Positions 1,343-50,285 are shown, numbered from the stretch's first letter. The stretch: 64,000 nucleotides of DNA from Sumerlaeia bacterium (GCA_040219255.1 JAVJSW010000059.1:1-64000); one strand, 5' to 3'. Numbers and translations: made by a program. Notes: generated by a model not told the origin, from the sequence alone.

Positions 1343-3295
1343 ATGGCTGAACTGGAACGAAAAGTCCGCGCGATCCGGCGCCGGCTGACGCTGTTTTTAT
1401 TTTTGGATACCCTGGTCAAATTGACGCTGATCGCGTTGGTTTTGGGCGTGGTGACGGTGCTGGCGCTGCGGTTGACGGGCGAGCCGGTGGAGCCTCTGAT
1501 TCCGGCGGCCGGGCTGGTGGCGCTGGCGTTTGTGGGGGCGTTGGGGTGGACGTACTCCAAGCGCCCGACGCTGGAGCGGGCCGCGTCGATCGCGGACGAC
1601 CGGCTGGGCCTGCGCGAGCGCCTTTCGAGCGCCATGCTGCTGAGCAAGTCGCCCCAGCGGGGCGAGGCCTTTGTGGCGCTGGAGCACGACGCCGAGCGCC
1701 ACGCCCAGGCCATCGATCCGGCCAAGGATTTCCGTTACCGGGCGCCGCGGACGCTGGTGCATTTGATGTGGCCGGCGGCGGCGCTGGTGGCGCTGTATGT
1801 TTTTCTGCCGCGCTACGATCTGCTGGCCGGGGCGCTTGGTCAGGACGAGGAAAAGGCGGCTCCGCCGGCCCCCGAGGTGGTGCAGGCCAAGCGCGCGGAG
1901 CAGGCCAAGGAGGTCTTGAATCTGGCCAAGGAGACGAAGAAGCTGGAAGAAGAGCTGGCCGATATGGGCGAGGGCATGGAGTTTTCGCGGGATCTCGAAC
2001 GGCTCTCGCGGGACCTGGAATACGGCATGAAGGACGAAAAGGCCGCCATCGCGGAAATGTCTCGCATGCAGGAAGACGTGAAGCAGGTCAAGAAGCAGCT
2101 CGAACGCAAGGCCCAGCCCTTCAAGCAGATCAGTGGCCTGCGCCGCGCCGAGCAGACCCAGGCGATGCAGCAGTCCCTGAAGGACCAGAACTTCGAGGAA
2201 GCGGCGGACATGATGCAGCAGATGGCTGAGCAGATCGCCAATGGCGAGATGGATGCCGAGCAGATGGAGCAGGCGGCGGAAGAGCTGAAGAATCTGGCCG
2301 AGGAAGTGAAGGAAAATCAACAGATGAGCGAGGCGATGAAGCAGGCCGCGGACGCCATGAAGCAAGCCGCCGAAGAGCAGAAGCGCCAGGAACAGCAACA
2401 ACAGCAACAGAACCAGGCCCAGCAGGACCAGCAACAGCAGCAGAATCAAGAAGGCGCTCAGCAAGGGCAGCAGGGCCAACAGGGTCAGCAGCAACAACAA
2501 CAGCAGTCCGGCGGCCAGCAGCAGCAACAGAACCAGGCGGGTCAACAGCCGCAGCAGAGCCAGGGCCAGCAAGGGCAGCAGGGACAACAAGGTCAGCAGG
2601 GTCAGCAGCAACAGCAGCAGCAGGGCCAGTCGCAGTCTCAGCAACAGGCGGCCCAGAGCGTCCAGCAGGCGGCTCAGCAAATGCAGCAGATGCAACAGAT
2701 GATGCAGCAGATGGAGCAGCTCGAGCAACTGCAGCAGAAGATGGGACAATGCCAGTCGGGCATGATGAACCAGCAGGGCCAGCAGTCGAACGCTGGCCAG
2801 CAGGGCCAAAGTGGCCAACAGCAATCCAGCCAGCAGCAATCCGGCCAGCAGGGTCAGCAAGGCCAAAGCGGTCAGCAGGGTCAGAGCGGCCAGCAGGGTG
2901 GCCAGCAGGGTCAGCAGGGGCAGAGCGGGGGCCAGAAACCGGGCCAGGGATCGGGCACGAGCCCCTGGCAGGAAGGCCAGAGCCAGCAGCAAGGCGAAGG
3001 CAGCGGCGGCCCCGGCCAGGGTGGCGGCTTGCCGCCGGACGCGGGCATCGTGGATGGCGTGCAGTTTGTCGACGAGCAGATCAAGGGGGCGAAGAACGAG
3101 GGGGAAATCCTGGCCGTGATCGAAATCGACGCCCCGGCGGAAAAGGGCGAGTCGAGCGTGGGCTATAGCGGCGACGTTCAGACCCGCATCCAGAAGAGCG
3201 CCGACAGCGTCAAGCAGTCGGAGATCCCACTGGGCTACCGCAACAACGTGCGCGACTACTTCGAAGCCATCAACCCGCAGGGCCGCCGGGAGTAG
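1343..3295 (+). CDS. membrane-anchored coiled-coil, Gln-rich protein (DUF4175-like, MoxR/vWA-locus associated)
   Basis: GGAG RBS; N-terminal TM helices; 'D.RLGLRERLSSA' motif; long Q/G low-complexity tract; C-terminal 'IPLGYRNNVRDYF'. Confidence 0.8.
   Translation: MAELERKVRAIRRRLTLFLFLDTLVKLTLIALVLGVVTVLALRLTGEPVEPLIPAAGLVALAFVGALGWTYSKRPTLERAASIADDRLGLRERLSSAMLLSKSPQRGEAFVALEHDAERHAQAIDPAKDFRYRAPRTLVHLMWPAAALVALYVFLPRYDLLAGALGQDEEKAAPPAPEVVQAKRAEQAKEVLNLAKETKKLEEELADMGEGMEFSRDLERLSRDLEYGMKDEKAAIAEMSRMQEDVKQVKKQLERKAQPFKQISGLRRAEQTQAMQQSLKDQNFEEAADMMQQMAEQIANGEMDAEQMEQAAEELKNLAEEVKENQQMSEAMKQAADAMKQAAEEQKRQEQQQQQQNQAQQDQQQQQNQEGAQQGQQGQQGQQQQQQQSGGQQQQQNQAGQQPQQSQGQQGQQGQQGQQGQQQQQQQGQSQSQQQAAQSVQQAAQQMQQMQQMMQQMEQLEQLQQKMGQCQSGMMNQQGQQSNAGQQGQSGQQQSSQQQSGQQGQQGQSGQQGQSGQQGGQQGQQGQSGGQKPGQGSGTSPWQEGQSQQQGEGSGGPGQGGGLPPDAGIVDGVQFVDEQIKGAKNEGEILAVIEIDAPAEKGESSVGYSGDVQTRIQKSADSVKQSEIPLGYRNNVRDYFEAINPQGRRE
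2385..3020 (+). repeat. coding low-complexity CAG/CAA-rich tract (poly-Q and QQG repeats)
   Basis: directly visible cagcagcaa and cagggccagcaa repeats. Confidence 0.9.
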
Positions 3296-3300
3296 AAATC

Positions 3301-3407
3301 ACCACGGAGGCACGGAGACACGAAGATTTGTTTCAGTGCCCCACAACGTGAGAGAATCCTTTTTTTGTTCCTGGAATTTGATCTCTGTGTCTCTGTGTCT
3401 CTGTGGT
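3301..3407. repeat. gene-less inverted-repeat hairpin element (GxxExxY-element type)
   Basis: arms 3301-3327 accacggaggcacggagacacgaagat and 3381-3407 atctctgtgtctctgtgtctctgtggt; 22/27 complementary. Confidence 0.85.
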
Positions 3408-4349
3408 AAAATCTTTCTACCGATCACGTTTGTCCTCCTCCTCGCTGGCTGCTCTCCCCAGCCCGGGGCGACGCCGCCTTCGGCGGTGCTGGGGCATCAG
3501 GGGCGGGCTCCGGGGGCGTTTTCCAAACCGCGCGCCATTGCGATCGATGGCCTGAATCGCCTCGCGGTGATCGATCGCACGGGCCGGATTCAGACGTTCG
3601 ACTTGCGGACTCTCGCTCTGCTCGAGGAATGGGAGCTTCCCAGCTACAGCAACGGCACGCCCACGGGCATGACGCTCGACCCCGTGGACGATACGATCTG
3701 GCTGGCCGATACGCATTATCAACGCATTCTGCATTACGGCTGGGATGGCACGTTGCTCGGCAGTTTCGGCGAGTCGGGCACCGGCCCGGGCCAGATGATC
3801 TTCCCCACCGATGTGGCGCTCGATCCGGACGGCGAGACCCTCTGGGTGGTCGAGTACGGGCACCGCGCCCGGTTGATGCAGTTCACCCGCGGCGGCGATT
3901 TCGTCCGCGAATGGACCACCGAACCCTACGAGTACACCGACGCCCAGCGCCCCCAGGCTCTCGCCATCGGAGAGGACGGCTTGATTTACGTGGCCGACGC
4001 GGGTGTGAATCGGGTTCTGGTGTTCAGCCGCGAGGGCGAGTTGCTGCGCTCCTGGGGCGAAGCGGGTAACGCGGCGGGCGAGCTTTGGTTTCCCTACGAC
4101 ATCGCCCTCGGTCCGGATCGGACGCTCTACATTTCGGAATGGGGCAACAGCCGCGTCAGCCATTTCACGCAAGAGGGCGAATTTCTGGGCTTCTGGGGCA
4201 TTCCCGGTCACGATCCGGGAATGCTCTGGCAGCCGTGGGGCGTCGCAATCGGCCCGGGCGGTCAATTGGCCGTTGCGGATACCGAGAATCATCGCGTTCA
4301 ATTAATCGATCGCCCCGAGAAAGACTTCACCAAGGGAACGCAAATCTAA
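3378..4349 (+). CDS. NHL-repeat beta-propeller lipoprotein (start uncertain: GTG 3336, TTG 3378 or GTG 3387)
   Basis: lipobox LLAGC; repeated 'F/P.DVAL', 'YVAD..N.RV..F...G' NHL blades. Confidence 0.85.
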   Translation: MISVSLCLCGKIFLPITFVLLLAGCSPQPGATPPSAVLGHQGRAPGAFSKPRAIAIDGLNRLAVIDRTGRIQTFDLRTLALLEEWELPSYSNGTPTGMTLDPVDDTIWLADTHYQRILHYGWDGTLLGSFGESGTGPGQMIFPTDVALDPDGETLWVVEYGHRARLMQFTRGGDFVREWTTEPYEYTDAQRPQALAIGEDGLIYVADAGVNRVLVFSREGELLRSWGEAGNAAGELWFPYDIALGPDRTLYISEWGNSRVSHFTQEGEFLGFWGIPGHDPGMLWQPWGVAIGPGGQLAVADTENHRVQLIDRPEKDFTKGTQI

Positions 4350-4358
4350 GCCTCGCTC

Positions 4359-7310
4359 ATGGCTCTTCACTTCGCCCGGCCCGAATATCTGCTCTTGCTT
4401 GTGCTGCTGCCCCTCGCCTGGCTGGTGGCGCGGCGGTTACGCACGCTGGGCGCGGGACGCAAAACCACCATTCTCGCCCTGCGCACGCTGATCCTCGCCC
4501 TTCTGGTCCTCGCCCTCGCCCAGCTCGAATGGCGCAGCCGCGCCAAGGATCTGACTGTTTATTTCCTGCTTGATCAATCCGACTCGATTCCGGCCGAGCT
4601 GGCCGAGCGCTCCACCGAACTCGTTCAGGAATTCATGCAGCGCAAAACCCCCGGCGACGAAGCCGGCATCATCGTCTTCGGCCGCGAACCGAGCGTCGAG
4701 ACCTACGCCTCCACCACCGCCGAATTCGACGGCAAGATCAACAGCACCGTCCAGGGCGTGCGCACCGATATTCAGCAGGCCGTTTCCCTCGCTCTCTCCG
4801 CCTTTCCCAACGACCGACTGAAACGCCTCGTGCTGTTCACCGACGGCAACGAGAACTCCGGTTCGTCGCTGGAAGTGGCCCGCCTCGCCCGCAACAGCAA
4901 CGTGGCGCTGGACCTGGTGCCGCTGCGCTACGACGAGCGTCAAGACGTCCAGATCGACAAGCTGATCGTCCCCCAGCAAATCGCCGCCGACACGCCCTTC
5001 GAAATCAAGGCGTTCCTCTCCAGCGCGACCAACACGTCGGGTCGGCTGCGGCTCTATCGCGATGGCGAACTGATCGTGGATCAGGAGGTCGAGGTCGCCG
5101 CCGGGCGCAATCCTCCCCTCATTATCCCGCAACGGCTCGAAGAAGGCGGTTTCCACAACTACCGCGCCACCTTCGAAGTCCCCGGCGACAGCCGCACGCA
5201 GAACAACCGCGCCGAAGCCTTTACCCACGTCAAGGACGAGCCCCGGGTGCTCTATGTGGAGGGCGATCAGACCAACCGCAATTACCTGACGGCGGCGCTG
5301 CGGGCCGAGAAAATCCAGGTCGATTTCGCGTCGGCGTCGGAAATTCCCTACTCGCTCAGCGAAATCCAGAGCTACGACTCGATCATCCTGTCAAACGTCC
5401 ACGCCAGCTCCATGAGCCGCGATCAGATGAAAATGTTCGAGCGCGCCGTCCACGATCTCGGTGTGGGTCTGGTGATGATCGGCGGCGAGGACAGCTTCGG
5501 CGCCGGCGGCTATCAGGACACGCCCATTGAGGACGCCCTGCCGGTGACGATGGACGTGAAACAGAAGAAGGTGCTGCCGAACGGCGCTCTGGCGATCATC
5601 CTGCACACGGCGGAAATTCCCCAGGGCAACGCCTGGGCGCGCGATATTTCCATCGCCGCGCTGGACGTGCTTTCCGCCCAGGACTACTTCGGGTTGATCT
5701 ACTATGGCCCCAAACCGGGCCAGGGTTTCGGCGGCGGCGCCGGCTCGATCGTCGAAACCTGGTCCTGGGAGCCCGGCATGCAGCAGACCGGCAACAAACG
5801 CGAAATGCGCTCGATCATTCGCGGCATCCAGCCCATGGACATGCAGGTCTTCGATCCCACCATGGAAATCGCTTACCAGGGCCTGAAAGACATCAAGGCC
5901 CAGGCCAAGCATATCATCATCATCAGCGACGGCGACCCGGCCCCGCCCAAGCAAACCCTGGCCAATGCCATTCGCGACGAGGGCATCACGATTTCGACCG
6001 TGGCCATCGCGCCCCACCACGGCCAGACGGTGGAAACGATGGAACGCCTGGCCTACTGGGGCGGCGGAGAATTCTACTATCCGAAATCCGCCACCGAACT
6101 GCCCCGCATCTTTATCAAGGAAGCCAGCATCGTCCGCCGCTCCTTGATTTACGAAGAACGCTTCGATCCCGTTTACGACGCCCCGAGCGAAATCACCGCC
6201 GGCTTTTTCGATCTCCCAGCGCTCGAGGGCTACGTCGTCACCAGCGATAAGGAACTGGCCACCATCGCCCTGCGCTCGCACAAGGACGATCCCCTCCTGG
6301 CGCATTGGCGCTATGGCCTGGGCAAGACCGTCGCCTTCACCAGCGACGCCAAGAACAAGTGGGCCTCCGATTGGGTGCAGTGGACCGGGTTTTCCAAGTA
6401 CTGGAGCCAACTCGTCCGCTGGTCCATGCGGGAAACGAGCAGCAGCAACTTCCAGGTCAACACCGAGCTGCGTGGCGGCAAGGGCATCGTCACACTGGAC
6501 GCCGTGGACATCGACGGCGATTTCCGCAACTTCCTGGAATTCAACGCCAACGTCATCGGTCCCGACATGGAGCCCCAGCCGCTGACCGTGCGCCAGGTGG
6601 CGCCGGGCCGCTACCAGGGCGAATTCGACGCCGACGAAGTGGGCACCTACATGCTTTCCATGCGCACCGGCGAGGACGAGCAGCCGGAGCTGATCACGAG
6701 CGGTGTGTCGCTGTCCTACTCGCCCGAGTACCAAGCCGTGCGCAGCAACGACGAGTTCATCGACCGCATCGCGAAAGAATCCAACGGCACCGTGGTCGGC
6801 AGCGGCTACAATCCCTTCGAGCGCAACCTGCCGCCGACCGAGCGCCCCCGCCCTCTTTGGCCGTGGCTGCTGCTGGCGGGGCTGCTGCTGGTGCCCGCCG
6901 ATGTGTTCGTGCGGCGCGTGTACCTGGACTGGGGCGACGTAGCCGCGGGAATCAGAAAGTACGCCGGCAGCGTTTTCGGCATCTTCCGCAAAGGCCCCGA
7001 CGTGGAGCAGCGCAGCGAGTCGATGGGCAGCCTCTTCGCCGCCAAGAGCCGCGCCAAGCAAACGGACGAAGAGCGCCAGGCCGCCGCCGCTCAGCAACAA
7101 GACCGCTCGGCCCTGCGCGAACGCCTGGCCCAGCAGGCCCAGGAAAAACAGGGCGAACCGAGCGTCTTCACCGAAGAAGGCCGAGGCCAAGCCCCCGCCC
7201 GCGTCCAAGGCAAACAAACCGTCTCGGCCAGCGACGCCAGCGAAGAGAAGCCGAGCGGCGGCCTGGCGGGGCTGAAGAAGGCGAAGGAACGGGCGAGGAA
7301 GAAGATGTGA
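4359..7310 (+). CDS. vWA-domain membrane protein with BatA-like N-terminus and GATase1-like domain
   Basis: 'F.RP.YLLLL' N-terminus; MIDAS 'LLDQSDS' and 'FTDGNEN'; 'GLVMIGGEDSFGAGGY'; 'WRYGLGKTVAFTSD'. Confidence 0.9.
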   Translation: MALHFARPEYLLLLVLLPLAWLVARRLRTLGAGRKTTILALRTLILALLVLALAQLEWRSRAKDLTVYFLLDQSDSIPAELAERSTELVQEFMQRKTPGDEAGIIVFGREPSVETYASTTAEFDGKINSTVQGVRTDIQQAVSLALSAFPNDRLKRLVLFTDGNENSGSSLEVARLARNSNVALDLVPLRYDERQDVQIDKLIVPQQIAADTPFEIKAFLSSATNTSGRLRLYRDGELIVDQEVEVAAGRNPPLIIPQRLEEGGFHNYRATFEVPGDSRTQNNRAEAFTHVKDEPRVLYVEGDQTNRNYLTAALRAEKIQVDFASASEIPYSLSEIQSYDSIILSNVHASSMSRDQMKMFERAVHDLGVGLVMIGGEDSFGAGGYQDTPIEDALPVTMDVKQKKVLPNGALAIILHTAEIPQGNAWARDISIAALDVLSAQDYFGLIYYGPKPGQGFGGGAGSIVETWSWEPGMQQTGNKREMRSIIRGIQPMDMQVFDPTMEIAYQGLKDIKAQAKHIIIISDGDPAPPKQTLANAIRDEGITISTVAIAPHHGQTVETMERLAYWGGGEFYYPKSATELPRIFIKEASIVRRSLIYEERFDPVYDAPSEITAGFFDLPALEGYVVTSDKELATIALRSHKDDPLLAHWRYGLGKTVAFTSDAKNKWASDWVQWTGFSKYWSQLVRWSMRETSSSNFQVNTELRGGKGIVTLDAVDIDGDFRNFLEFNANVIGPDMEPQPLTVRQVAPGRYQGEFDADEVGTYMLSMRTGEDEQPELITSGVSLSYSPEYQAVRSNDEFIDRIAKESNGTVVGSGYNPFERNLPPTERPRPLWPWLLLAGLLLVPADVFVRRVYLDWGDVAAGIRKYAGSVFGIFRKGPDVEQRSESMGSLFAAKSRAKQTDEERQAAAAQQQDRSALRERLAQQAQEKQGEPSVFTEEGRGQAPARVQGKQTVSASDASEEKPSGGLAGLKKAKERARKKM

Positions 7311-7768
7311 TGGGAGAGAAAGAAATTCACCGCAGAGGCGCGGAGAGCGCTGAGATGGAATGGGGAAATGACCGGCTGACCGGCGAAGTCATCGCCGCAG
7401 CGATCGAAGTGCATCGCTTCCTAGGGCCGGGCTTGCTGGAAAGCGCGTATCAGGGTTGTCTCGCCACTGAGTTGGATCTGAGGAGATTAGGCTATCGGAG
7501 AGAGGTCGAACTGCCCTTGATCTATAAGGGAAACGCGGTGGATTGCTCCTATCGGCTAGATTTTGTCGTCGAAGAGAAACTCGTTCTGGAACTCAAGTCG
7601 GTGACCTCCTTGGAACCCATCCATCACGCTCAGGTCCTGACTTATCTTCGATTGTCGTCTTACCACCGGGCTCTCTTGATAAACTTCAATGTCCCACTCC
7701 TGAAAGATGGCATCAAACGTATCGTCCTCTCCAACAAATCCTCAGCGCCCTCCGCGCCTCTGCGGTGA
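7310..7768 (+). CDS. GxxExxY protein (PD-(D/E)xK superfamily); alternative start 7355
   Basis: 'AAIEVHRFLGPGLLESAYQ', 'YRLDFVVE', 'LELKSV', 'HHAQVLTYLRLS', 'LLINFN'; ATG overlaps the vWA stop (TGATG); host-atypical codon usage. Confidence 0.93.
   Translation: MGEKEIHRRGAESAEMEWGNDRLTGEVIAAAIEVHRFLGPGLLESAYQGCLATELDLRRLGYRREVELPLIYKGNAVDCSYRLDFVVEEKLVLELKSVTSLEPIHHAQVLTYLRLSSYHRALLINFNVPLLKDGIKRIVLSNKSSAPSAPLR
7327..7768. mobile_element. putative inverted-repeat-bounded element carrying the GxxExxY gene
   Basis: arms 7327-7354 tcaccgcagaggcgcggagagcgctgag and 7741-7768 ctcagcgccctccgcgcctctgcggtga; 27/28 complementary; mobility is inferred. Confidence 0.65.
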
Positions 7769-7797
7769 TTTTTCTTCCCCCAAGGACCCCCCCTCCC

Positions 7798-8811
7798 ATG
7801 CCTGAAATGTCCATCGAGCAAGCCGCCGCCGCCTTTCGCCAGGAATACGAGGCGGTGTACAATGAAATCCAGAAGATGATCGTCGGTCAGGGCGATGTGA
7901 TCGAAGGCGTCTTGATGTGTCTGTTCTCGGGGGGCAACGTGCTCCTCGAGGGCGTGCCGGGGTTGGGCAAGACGATGCTGATCCGCACGCTGTCCGAGGT
8001 TCTCGACCTGCCCTTCTCGCGCATTCAATTCACCCCGGACCTGATGCCCGCCGACATCGTGGGCACGAATATCGTGCAGGAAAACCCCGAGACCGGCCGC
8101 CGCGAGATGGTGTTCCAGAACGGTCCGATCTTCAGCAGCCTGGTCCTCGCGGACGAAATCAACCGCGCCACCCCCAAAACTCAGTCCGCCATGCTGGAAG
8201 CGATGCAGGAGAAGCAGGTCACCGCCGGTGGCCAGCGCTATTTCCTCGAAAAGCCCTTCTTCGTCATGGCGACACAGAACCCGCTCGAGCAGGAAGGCAC
8301 CTATCCGTTGCCGGAAGCGCAGCTCGACCGCTTCCTCTACAAGCTGCTGGTACCCTTCCCGAACCGCGCCGAGCTGATCGAAATCCTCAACCGCACCACG
8401 ATGGAGCATTCTCCGGAAATCAACAAGGTCATGACGCGCGAACGGCTTGTGCAATGGATGACGTTCGTGCGCCGCATCGTCGTGGCGCCGCACGTCCAGG
8501 ACTACGCCGTGCGCCTGCTCCTCTCCACCCACCCGCAGAGCGAATTCGCCACCGACATCACGAAACGCTACGTGCGTTTCGGCGCCAGCCCCCGCGGCGC
8601 CCAGGCCCTTATCCTGACCGGCAAGATCAAAGCCCTGCGCGCCGAACGCTACAACGTCGCCTTCGCCGACGTCGCCGCCGTGGCGCTCAACACGCTGCGC
8701 CACCGCATCATCCTCAATTTCGAAGCCGAAGCCGAAGGCATCACCCCCGACATGGTGATCCAGCAACTCCTGAAGGACGTGCCGCGGGAAGTGGCCGGGG
8801 CGAAAGCGTGA
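7798..8811 (+). CDS. moxR: MoxR family AAA+ ATPase
   Basis: Walker A 'EGVPGLGKT'; 'RIQFTPDLMPADI'; 'LADEINRATPKTQSA'; 'EGTYPLPEAQLDRF'; 'GASPR'. Confidence 0.95.
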   Translation: MPEMSIEQAAAAFRQEYEAVYNEIQKMIVGQGDVIEGVLMCLFSGGNVLLEGVPGLGKTMLIRTLSEVLDLPFSRIQFTPDLMPADIVGTNIVQENPETGRREMVFQNGPIFSSLVLADEINRATPKTQSAMLEAMQEKQVTAGGQRYFLEKPFFVMATQNPLEQEGTYPLPEAQLDRFLYKLLVPFPNRAELIEILNRTTMEHSPEINKVMTRERLVQWMTFVRRIVVAPHVQDYAVRLLLSTHPQSEFATDITKRYVRFGASPRGAQALILTGKIKALRAERYNVAFADVAAVALNTLRHRIILNFEAEAEGITPDMVIQQLLKDVPREVAGAKA

Positions 8812-49103: not shown

Positions 49104-49176
49104 TACGAGAAGTGTATGTGCGCGTCAAGGGCGAATCGACGATGGCTACAAGCGCTCGCTGACACCTCGGAAATCG

Positions 49177-49286
49177 GCCACGGATGAGCACGGATAGCAA
49201 ACCGGATACAAGGAAGACATTCGTTCATGCCAAACTAGCCTTAGAGACAGAGAACAATCCGAATCCTATCCGTGCCAATCCGTGGC
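49177..49286. repeat. gene-less inverted-repeat hairpin element (GxxExxY-element type)
   Basis: arms 49177-49197 gccacggatgagcacggatag and 49266-49286 ctatccgtgccaatccgtggc; 19/21 complementary. Confidence 0.85.
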
Positions 49287-50285
49287 GTTTTCCCCCACCC
49301 GCTCCGGGTACAAACTCGGTTCCGCCTCGCGCGCCAGGTCCACCAGCAGCCTCCGCAGCCGTCCCGGCCGGGCCGAGGCGCGTTCGATGCGGCGGGCGCC
49401 ACGGTCTCGCAGGTGCTGCCTCACGCGGGCGATTTCTTTGCGCGAGGCGCTTTTCGTTCCCAGCAGCAGAGCGCTCCACGGGCGCGCGGCCAGGTCCGTC
49501 AGAAGCTCGCCCAGCCGCCGCGCCCGCGCGTCGAAGAGCCGCTCGCCGCCTCGCCCGTCCGCCAGGCTCCACAGCACCAGCGCCGCGTCCGCCTCCAGCG
49601 GCACGGACTCGAAGGCCAGGCAGGCGTCCAGGTCCGCGGCTTCGCGCCGCACCAGGTAGGCGAGCGGCACGCCATCGAGCGTCGCCACGTGCTCGGCCAT
49701 GTCCGTCTCGGACTTATCGAGGTCGTGGAAATCGTAGAGGCGCCAAGGCTGGCCGGCGGTGCGCTGGCGTTCGCGCTCGACGCCGCGAAAGACGATAAAG
49801 GGATCGAAGGTCTCGGCCAGCCCCAGCGCCACCGCGGCGATCTGGCAGCGTGGTGCGCCGAACCGCCGCACCGCGTCCCAGAGCGTCCGCTTGAGCCATT
49901 CGCGTTCGTCCAGGGTGAAGCGGGCTACATGGAGGCGGGCGCGCTCCTCGCCTCCCTGGCGCATAAGCATGTGCGGCCCATGGCTGTCGAAGCCCCAGGC
50001 CAGCTCGTCCAGTTCGCGCCATTTCAGGGCGATGTGATCTTCGATGGCGCTGGCCGCGCGGCCCTTGATGGCCAGTTCCTGCGGCGTACCCCGCAGCGTC
50101 AGGTACGGTGGCCGGTTCGGAAACAGGAGCGTCTCCGCCGCCACCCAGGCCTTCACGGCCAGGTTGCCGCCGCGCGCGCGGCTGCGGATCAGGACGTGGC
50201 CATTGTCGTTGGCCCGCACCTCGAACGCGTCCGGTGGATCCGTCTCGAACAGCCAGCGCGCCTGGGGCGGCACGGGGCGGCTCAT
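49266..50285 (-). CDS. hypothetical protein
   Basis: 339-aa ORF; ATGA overlap with the upstream gene; host codon usage. Confidence 0.7.
   Translation of the reverse strand: MSRPVPPQARWLFETDPPDAFEVRANDNGHVLIRSRARGGNLAVKAWVAAETLLFPNRPPYLTLRGTPQELAIKGRAASAIEDHIALKWRELDELAWGFDSHGPHMLMRQGGEERARLHVARFTLDEREWLKRTLWDAVRRFGAPRCQIAAVALGLAETFDPFIVFRGVERERQRTAGQPWRLYDFHDLDKSETDMAEHVATLDGVPLAYLVRREAADLDACLAFESVPLEADAALVLWSLADGRGGERLFDARARRLGELLTDLAARPWSALLLGTKSASRKEIARVRQHLRDRGARRIERASARPGRLRRLLVDLAREAEPSLYPERVGENATDWHG

Follow-up and report, generated by a model that had tools for sequence, protein, structure and literature searches.

The vWA-moxR junction and its cassette

The stretch of DNA analysed here, called the window throughout, covers 64,000 nucleotides (nt) from a Sumerlaeia bacterium (GCA_040219255.1 JAVJSW010000059.1:1-64000; its genome is G000 below). 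Between a gene for a vWA protein and a gene for a MoxR ATPase it carries a short open reading frame (ORF) of the GxxExxY family, enclosed by a long inverted repeat; repeat and gene together are referred to as the cassette. The features of the locus are the following, with positions counted from the first letter of the window.

7318..7777, plus strand: whole inserted cassette (left arm, gene and right arm), 460 bp, with the limits of the inverted repeat
7318..7354, no strand: left arm, with an A/T-rich outer end, a TCACC terminus and the units CGCAGAGG, CGCGGAGAG and CGCTGAG
7341..7346, plus strand: putative ribosome-binding site GGAGAG within the left arm, 9-14 nt before ATG 7355
7355..7768, plus strand: GxxExxY / PD-(D/E)xK nuclease ORF, 137 amino acids (aa) from ATG 7355 (152 aa from ATG 7310)
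7741..7777, no strand: right arm, the reverse complement of the left arm, which contains the TGA of the ORF (7766-7768) and is followed by a T-rich run
7752..7775, plus strand: terminator-like small hairpin with a T run, at the right arm's outer end (pattern match only)
7343-7330, minus strand: mirror-image terminator-like hairpin, its T run continuing towards 7320
4359..7310, plus strand: upstream host gene, encoding a 983-aa vWA / GATase1-like (BatA-like) protein (Pfam)
7798..8811, plus strand: downstream host gene, encoding a MoxR AAA+ ATPase (Pfam AAA_3, E 1.3e-61)

An earlier description drawn from the DNA letters alone (the sequence-only reading) had reported arms at 7327-7354 and 7741-7768, complementary at 27 of 28 positions and composed of 8-9-nt sub-repeats. 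These arms are present in the sequence, and a repeat search extends them to 37 nt (89%; 7318-7354 / 7741-7777), each arm consisting of a TCACC terminus and then three 8-9-nt units. Inverted repeats were scored without gaps, at +1 for a match and -2 for a mismatch, and genes whose repeat scores at least 14 are called boxed. The window repeat is far beyond chance: it scores 26, while among 1000 random places of the genome, taken with the same geometry, one reaches at least 14 and the maximum is 21. An Rfam scan of 7200-7900 returned no family at E <= 1. The atypical composition claimed for the gene is also found, with a GC content of 54% against 63.6% for the genome, and a GC content at third codon positions (GC3) of 0.64 against 0.84-0.85 in the neighbour genes.

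The ATG at 7310 does overlap the TGA of the vWA gene (7308-7310), as the sequence-only reading had it, and the ATG of moxR stands at 7798. As a start, however, ATG 7355, directly after the left arm, is likelier than ATG 7310; among boxed relatives, 30 of 47 have their first in-frame start between -2 and +16 nt from the inner end of the arm. The stop codon precedes the right arm in 41 of the 48 boxed elements and lies inside it in 4, the window among them; the supply of the TGA by the right arm, correctly noticed in the window, is thus an exception in the family. From these surveys of starts and stops it follows that the ORF normally fills just the loop. The last purine-rich unit of the left arm is placed like a ribosome-binding site and may well act as one.

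The ORF 7310-7768 matches TIGR04256 (GxxExxY; E 3.4e-41, 140.3 bits for a cut-off of 35) and PF13366 (PDDEXK_3; E 5.9e-40, 136.7 bits for a cut-off of 22). Numbered from 7310, the motif residues G41, E44, Y47, D84, E94 and K96 are all present; the GxxExxY, D and E.K columns are invariant or at least 90% conserved in an alignment of 20 sequences, and the PD-(D/E)xK catalytic set (E44, D84, E94 and K96) is intact and conserved. The AlphaFold2 model, with a predicted local distance difference test score (pLDDT) of 97.7, has a restriction-endonuclease-like alpha/beta fold; its top Foldseek match is Cas4 SSO0001 (4ic1, E 8.9e-4), and further matches are RecB-type nuclease domains, Bax1, lambda exonuclease, Hjc and I-Bth0305I (rank 10, E 0.021). 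Profiles and fold matches thus agree with the GxxExxY nuclease-fold identity first proposed. A sequence search of the PDB with the protein gave nothing at E <= 1, and the PADLOC and PHROGs profiles gave no family at E <= 0.01. Pfam and NCBIfam return PDDEXK_3 / GxxExxY only, with no transposase domain (DDE, HUH/Y1, serine or tyrosine recombinase). In a 2012 survey of the superfamily, PDDEXK_3 is entered as "Unknown", present in prokaryotes and viruses and subject to multiple transfers (PMC3424549).

The vWA protein was searched in 40 relatives; orthologues occur in 35 of the 41 genomes searched, and 30 loci were taken, G000 included. Both vWA and moxR are found at 18 of these (again with G000), 10 with a spacer of 4-57 nt and 8 with one of 487-876 nt; the 12 further loci, which show no moxR within the 0-1497 nt of DNA taken downstream, were left out of the count. 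When 7318-7777 is removed from the window, a vWA-moxR spacer of 27 nt remains, similar to the empty junctions. The 10 empty junctions among the 18, which an alignment of relatives had been expected to reveal, identify the cassette as an insertion. The congeners G002 and G007 provide another filled/empty pair, in that two convergent genes which abut in G007 are parted in the other genome by a GxxExxY gene that is boxed; this pair is too diverged for base-exact ends, and no closer empty site was found. Four congener comparisons made for exact ends ran into contig breaks, rearranged flanks or different large inserts.

The junction is also filled by other genes. In G006 and G007 it holds a PF05635 "23S rRNA-intervening sequence protein" gene (Pfam), boxed in both genomes by inverted repeats of short tandem units. 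The other fillings are, by Pfam, an N6/N4 DNA methylase (G005), a ParE/ParD pair, an ORF6N protein and an Rce1-like protease; the junction of G010 holds a 297-aa ORF, itself outside the Pfam scan, that is near-identical to the G005 methylase. Among the relatives, the vWA-moxR junction is a hot spot for insertions (loci L003, L005, L006, L007, L015, L022 and L023). Downstream of vWA in G012 (L020), inverted GGTTGTG-like heptamer arrays enclose a loop of ~200 nt without a family gene, resembling a gene-less hairpin of the PF05635-type design at the vWA-moxR junction.

No RNA sequencing run was found to contain the stretch. Excision was looked for in three DNA sequencing runs from one study, and no contig bridged an empty site, so that the excision junctions sought in DNA reads did not appear. 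One contig joins arm to arm, the content between being unknown, and the summed contig depth goes up only over both arms. As a sign of excision both were rejected; they are read as other hairpins in the metagenome.

Boxed genes and dispersed arrays

G000 contains five GxxExxY copies, four of which are boxed, with scores of 26, 26, 23 and 14; the fifth scores 8. In the 40 relatives, 80 copies remained of 101 domain matches once partials, duplicate DNA and those closer than 220 nt to the end of a contig had been dropped; 48 of the 80 score at least 14 and 52 at least 12. Among mismatched flank pairs 8 of 300 reach 14, a control that is inflated because the arms of different elements resemble each other. 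Partial and stop-containing GxxExxY copies are also present in the relatives.

The boxing extends well beyond these relatives. The 80 closest homologues in species-representative genomes share 51-64% identity and come from many phyla (Acidobacteriota, Chloroflexota, Planctomycetota, Verrucomicrobiota, Cyanobacteria, Bacteroidota, Gemmatimonadota, Cloacimonadota, Bacillota, Proteobacteria, Thermodesulfobacteriota and two archaea). Of the 76 that lie far enough from contig ends, 53 score at least 14, against 1 of 1000 random places; those boxed include Acidobacteriota, Chloroflexota, Planctomycetota, Cyanobacteria, Bacteroidota, Bacillota, Gammaproteobacteria and one archaeon. The arms have a design common across phyla—(T)TCACCAC, then CAC(A/G)GAG units plus one or two bases—with CGCAGAG, CACGAAG, CACGAAT and CGCAGATGA as variants of the unit. 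That TCACC always stands outermost is due to the nature of an inverted repeat, which reads the same on both strands; for the same reason the idea that some genes are "flipped" relative to their arms was rejected, and the apparent cases are genes between two separate hairpins.

In a quick maximum-likelihood tree of 98 boxed proteins the phyla are intermixed throughout, and the deepest division (support 97) runs between the ..AT-armed genes (all 11) and those with GAG/AAG arms (all 70). Judged by these comparisons, gene and arms travel together between phyla and spread horizontally. Regarding the vehicle, plasmids gave GxxExxY matches in 8 of 72,556 records, mostly very large replicons, and none of 50,697 phage records matched (tblastn). 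The architecture is shared by genes of another kind: of 25 PF05635 four-helix-bundle genes, 18 score at least 14, with arms made of many different 7-nt units.

In G025 (contig C4, locus L066) a GxxExxY gene lies among several complete tight hairpins with 12-nt loops, in the atpD-atpC spacer; the flanking ATP synthase beta and epsilon genes were named by eye from ORF translations. Two congeners (L242 and L243) have ~4 kb of unrelated genes and no arrays at this spacer, one congener with two ORFs resembling, by eye, a nucleotidyltransferase/HEPN-type pair.

Arrays of the arm units are not confined to the genes. With a pattern that requires at least three units, 173 arrays are found in G000 and 1 in the block-shuffled genome. 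An inverted partner within 1.2 kb is clear for 57 of the 173, marginal for 33 and absent for 83; for the same arms against random DNA the figures are 2, 12 and 159. There are 36 clean hairpins in G000, of which 34 are gene-less (loops of 53-230 nt, median GC 0.47) and 2 contain whole genes. The loops are unique but for one nested pair, two weak matches and the two genes, the arms alone being shared. The hairpins are intergenic, mostly within ~25 nt of a stop codon (6 between convergent and 1 between divergent genes), and have an A-rich run at one flank and a T-rich run at the opposite one. That the gene-less hairpins are decayed genes is unsupported in G000: a search for GxxExxY remnants in the 36 loops (hmmsearch --max, E <= 1) hit only the two gene-bearing loops, and none of the 34 others.

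Two of the gene-less hairpins are in the window itself. The one at 3296-3412, with TCACCAC and CACGGAG units, a loop of ~55 nt and a right arm of the CTCTGTG type, follows immediately on the TAG that ends ORF 1343-3295, a member of the same row of genes; the listed GTG start of the NHL ORF (3336) falls inside its loop and is therefore doubtful. The other, at ~49176-49287, is of the CACGGATG-unit type with a loop of ~70 nt. G000 has two other families of short palindromic repeats, of the GTAGTCCCGCCTTCAGGCGG and the CACGGGCGGGACGCCCGTG type, which are like repetitive extragenic palindromes (REPs) and unrelated to the arrays (e.g. C53:11079-12006, C12:95213-95345, C49:49757-49897 and C60:331674-331790). 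A CRISPR-like array with evenly spaced repeats of ~33-36 nt is found at the start of a contig (C49:1-820). Several contig ends are (near-)perfect inverted duplications of 80-140 nt with gaps of ~40-70 nt, most likely assembly artefacts (C1:1-293, C12:2-350, C14:1-242, C38:14940-15223, C48:33983-34299, C53:43118-43441, C65:121789-122058 and C74:1-206).

How many arrays a genome has, and of which type, follows its GxxExxY genes. The counts come from 44 genomes, each at least 90% complete and, although the search was phylum-wide, all of the window's class. The array count correlates with GxxExxY copy number (Spearman 0.74); where the gene is absent (8 genomes) there are 0-25 arrays (median 3), and where it is present (36 genomes) 1-314 (median 67). 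A reversed control pattern gave 211 matches in total, against 3709 for the real pattern, and was itself weakly correlated with gene number (0.41); for this reason, and since the genomes are related, the p-values overstate the link. As to types, G000 contains GAG-type arrays (64) and none of the AAG type, and both of its typed genes have GAG arms; in G001 the counts are 0 for GAG and 9 for AAG, and of its two typed genes one is AAG-armed and one mixed GAG/AAG (scored GAG). AAG arrays are present in all 6 genomes with an AAG-armed gene (7-128 arrays), against 9 zeros among 19 others (p 0.007). Five distant carriers, with 1-6 gene copies each, have 58-566 arrays, against 0-11 for the control pattern:

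Pelotalea chapellei DSM 13688: 85 arrays, 6 gene copies
Cuspidothrix: 58 arrays
Prochloron metagenome-assembled genome (MAG): 566 arrays
Methanotrichaceae archaeon MAG: 165 arrays
Chloracidobacterium MAG: 148 arrays

In the Methanotrichaceae archaeon MAG, a region of ~55 kb (G062:C1:259000-315000) is dense in arrays; all 4 GxxExxY matches of this genome are located there, two of them with stop codons.

Weighing the explanations

The explanation we favour, at slightly under an even chance, is that window 7318-7777 is a gene-carrying member of a widespread family of hairpin-bounded insertions, with GxxExxY as the family's own enzyme and an RNA stem that insulates the operon. The cis part would be the pair of inverted arrays, each with a TCACC(A/G)C terminus and three or four 8-10-nt units such as CAC(A/G)GAG, and the cargo, wholly in the loop, would be the minimal PD-(D/E)xK nuclease. 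GxxExxY would recognise the arrays or cut them, in the form of an extruded hairpin or of a single strand, and its action could make them spread or persist in the intergenic DNA right behind stop codons; such a logic would be that of a RAYT gene (for REP-associated tyrosine transposase) flanked by its REPIN hairpins, with a different enzyme. Upon transcription of the host operon the arms would close a stem of ~37 bp, followed by a U-rich run, and this stem would either terminate transcription or undergo cleavage by RNase III, like that of the 23S rRNA intervening sequences (IVSs) of the same anatomy; with either outcome the insertion could be tolerated. The last unit of the 5' arm would then provide the loop ORF with its ribosome-binding site. 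As regards the RNA, in the minimum-free-energy structure of 7300-7800 the arms pair (-194 kcal/mol, z = -3.9; none of 100 shuffles as good), a terminator consensus scan finds 4 sites against 0.9 expected, one of them at each outer end of the window element, and G000 encodes RNase III.

The minimal mobile unit of the sequence-only reading is well supported as an inserted, horizontally travelling cassette, by the empty junctions, the other boxed copies and the dispersed arms. Synteny across relatives, a lack of empty sites and other copies unboxed, which would all speak against it, were not seen, and this supports the mobile unit. The mechanism suggested along with it, in which the nuclease acts on its own hairpin or the element is excised from RNA, is so far an inference. 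The picture of an autonomous element is complicated by PF05635 in the same hairpin, by the unique gene-less loops and by arm mismatches without a G:U bias. The flanks of the GxxExxY genes in G000 do show inverted repeats, at four of the five copies; the direct repeats looked for with them, by eye, in 21 elements gave no consistent target duplication.

This last result is one of several that weigh against a hairpin family run by GxxExxY. Nearly half of the G000 arrays (83 of 173) are partnerless, and the gene-less hairpins, from their unique loops, are not simple copies of one another. PF05635, which is not a nuclease, occurs in the same architecture, so that the hairpin's cargo need not act on it as a substrate. 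No GxxExxY match was obtained in G036, in spite of its 25 arrays, the test on GAG-type arrays is marginal (p 0.055), and correlations across related genomes could reflect gene-less hairpins decaying from gene-bearing ones. On the enzyme side, no biochemistry is known for any GxxExxY protein, and a lone PD-(D/E)xK nuclease can cut DNA and is not known to join strands. On the RNA side, the mismatches of the arms show no G:U bias (40 of G:U type, 44 of A:C type), and the archaeal genome with 165 arrays has no match to RNase III; both argue against selection at the RNA level.

These two observations also tell against an explanation of the IVS type only, in which the arms act solely in RNA and spread by the host or an unknown route, GxxExxY being mere cargo such as an addiction or defence gene. 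We consider it unlikely. In its favour, the anatomy matches that of the Coxiella 23S IVS (28-bp stem, tandem heptamers, loop ORF and RNase III cut; PMC4990558), a non-nuclease PF05635 ORF sits in equivalent hairpins, twice at the vWA-moxR junction itself, and the pairing of the arms in the RNA fold, the terminator-like ends, the position behind stop codons and the RNase III of G000 all point the same way. Beyond the lack of a G:U excess and the archaeon, it meets the difficulties that the arms of GxxExxY elements are conserved across phyla in sequence and not in pairing alone, that array numbers and types follow the gene, and that the protein has no PADLOC or PHROGs match. An ordinary operon gene inherited vertically, its repeat a local regulatory stem or a product of chance, can hardly be credited. 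The ORF is intact and runs in the operon's direction, with a possible ATG that overlaps the stop of vWA, as such a gene would have it; against this stand the ten empty junctions, the same arms in other phyla, the GC3 that departs from the neighbours, and the single place in 1000 that reaches even half the repeat score.

It is also conceivable, if quite improbable in our judgement, that GxxExxY is a free-standing gene of the homing-endonuclease type invading pre-existing hairpins, the arms then belonging to the target. Hairpins do nest and cluster (C2:24302-24563 contains a second hairpin, and C46:30217-30541 is similar), the G025 gene is bordered by tight hairpins, themselves complete, within the atpD-atpC spacer, loop sizes are bimodal (53-230 nt or a whole gene), and PD-(D/E)xK homing endonucleases exist, I-Bth0305I being among the fold matches. 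However, no orthologous site was found with the same hairpin plus and minus the gene, and the empty junctions are also without hairpin. From the family's deepest split onwards the gene has diverged in step with its arm type, an observation as compatible with a single unit as with homing.

Returning to hairpin-bounded insertions with GxxExxY as their own enzyme, a bolder form of the proposal can be stated, which we regard as doubtful at present. GxxExxY proteins might be the dedicated nucleases of pan-prokaryotic, self-propagating hairpin repeats made of inverted octamer arrays, an independent second invention of the REPIN-RAYT kind; the ORF-bearing 23S IVSs with their S23p genes might then be a sister branch within the same class of hairpin cassettes.

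Relation to known systems

GxxExxY (PF13366/TIGR04256) is a large bacterial and archaeal family without assigned function, for which there is now a testable proposal, a nuclease acting on 8-nt arrays; if true, it would give the family its first function, and cultured carriers exist, e.g. Pelotalea chapellei DSM 13688. A possible origin is also suggested for the ORF-bearing 23S rRNA IVSs, which would belong to a general class of hairpin cassettes landing in any transcribed spacer. For annotation, such cassettes would account for odd N- or C-terminal extensions of such genes, for assembly breaks and for small insertions in conserved operons (vWA-moxR, atpD-atpC). Our literature search, which left subscription journals and closed supplements outside, found no paper linking GxxExxY to repeats, and the arm motifs in none.

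The closest resemblance in anatomy is to the 23S rRNA IVSs with an S23p / PF05635 ORF of Coxiella burnetii and Leptospira: taken together, these and the window element have ~430-460 nt, a stem of ~28-37 bp formed by the terminal inverted repeats, an ORF in the loop and tandem 7-9-nt units just before its start. The Coxiella IVS has a terminal stem of 28 bp, within which RNase III cuts, and ahead of the S23p start three GACAGAT heptamers in tandem; ORF-bearing 23S IVSs have been regarded as selfish and possibly once mobile (PMC4990558). Unlike these IVSs, which are located in helix 25 or 45 of the 23S rRNA and encode a four-helix bundle, the window element lies in an mRNA spacer between protein genes and encodes a PD-(D/E)xK nuclease. 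The arms of the PF05635 genes examined are made of varied 7-nt units, whereas the arm sequence of GxxExxY genes is conserved across phyla. The PF05635-flanking arrays also look like the short tandemly repeated repetitive (STRR) heptamers of heterocystous cyanobacteria, tandem 7-nt units that occur both in intergenic DNA and inside structured RNAs.

Correia elements (NEMIS) of Neisseria are short intergenic elements with terminal inverted repeats, co-transcribed with genes, whose hairpins are bound or cut by RNase III and which can affect neighbour genes (PMC2649163). The GxxExxY hairpins share with them, and with bacterial MITEs (miniature inverted-repeat transposable elements), the short intergenic format and the terminal inverted repeats. 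Correia elements have a conserved core and no ORF, whereas GxxExxY hairpins have unique loops, some with a nuclease gene, and occur in many phyla; in contrast to a MITE or an insertion sequence, they have neither near-identical interiors nor a recognised transposase.

In genomic behaviour the likeness is rather to REPIN-RAYT, which is described as having dispersed extragenic hairpin repeats, a gene flanked by repeats in inverted orientation, a repeat abundance tied to the presence of the gene and a type of repeat for each gene lineage (PMC3337134). GxxExxY differs in its enzyme, a PD-(D/E)xK nuclease instead of an HUH/Y1 transposase, and in its repeats, since the arms are arrays of tandem units instead of single palindromes, with unique loops of 53-230 nt and several paralogues per genome. 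REPIN-RAYT is moreover described as mostly vertical (10.1101/2022.05.22.493013), whereas the inheritance of GxxExxY is apparently strongly horizontal. Altogether, the hairpin cassettes point to a form of selfish DNA that is widespread and apparently little described, IVS-like in anatomy and REPIN-RAYT-like in genomics, with a different enzyme.

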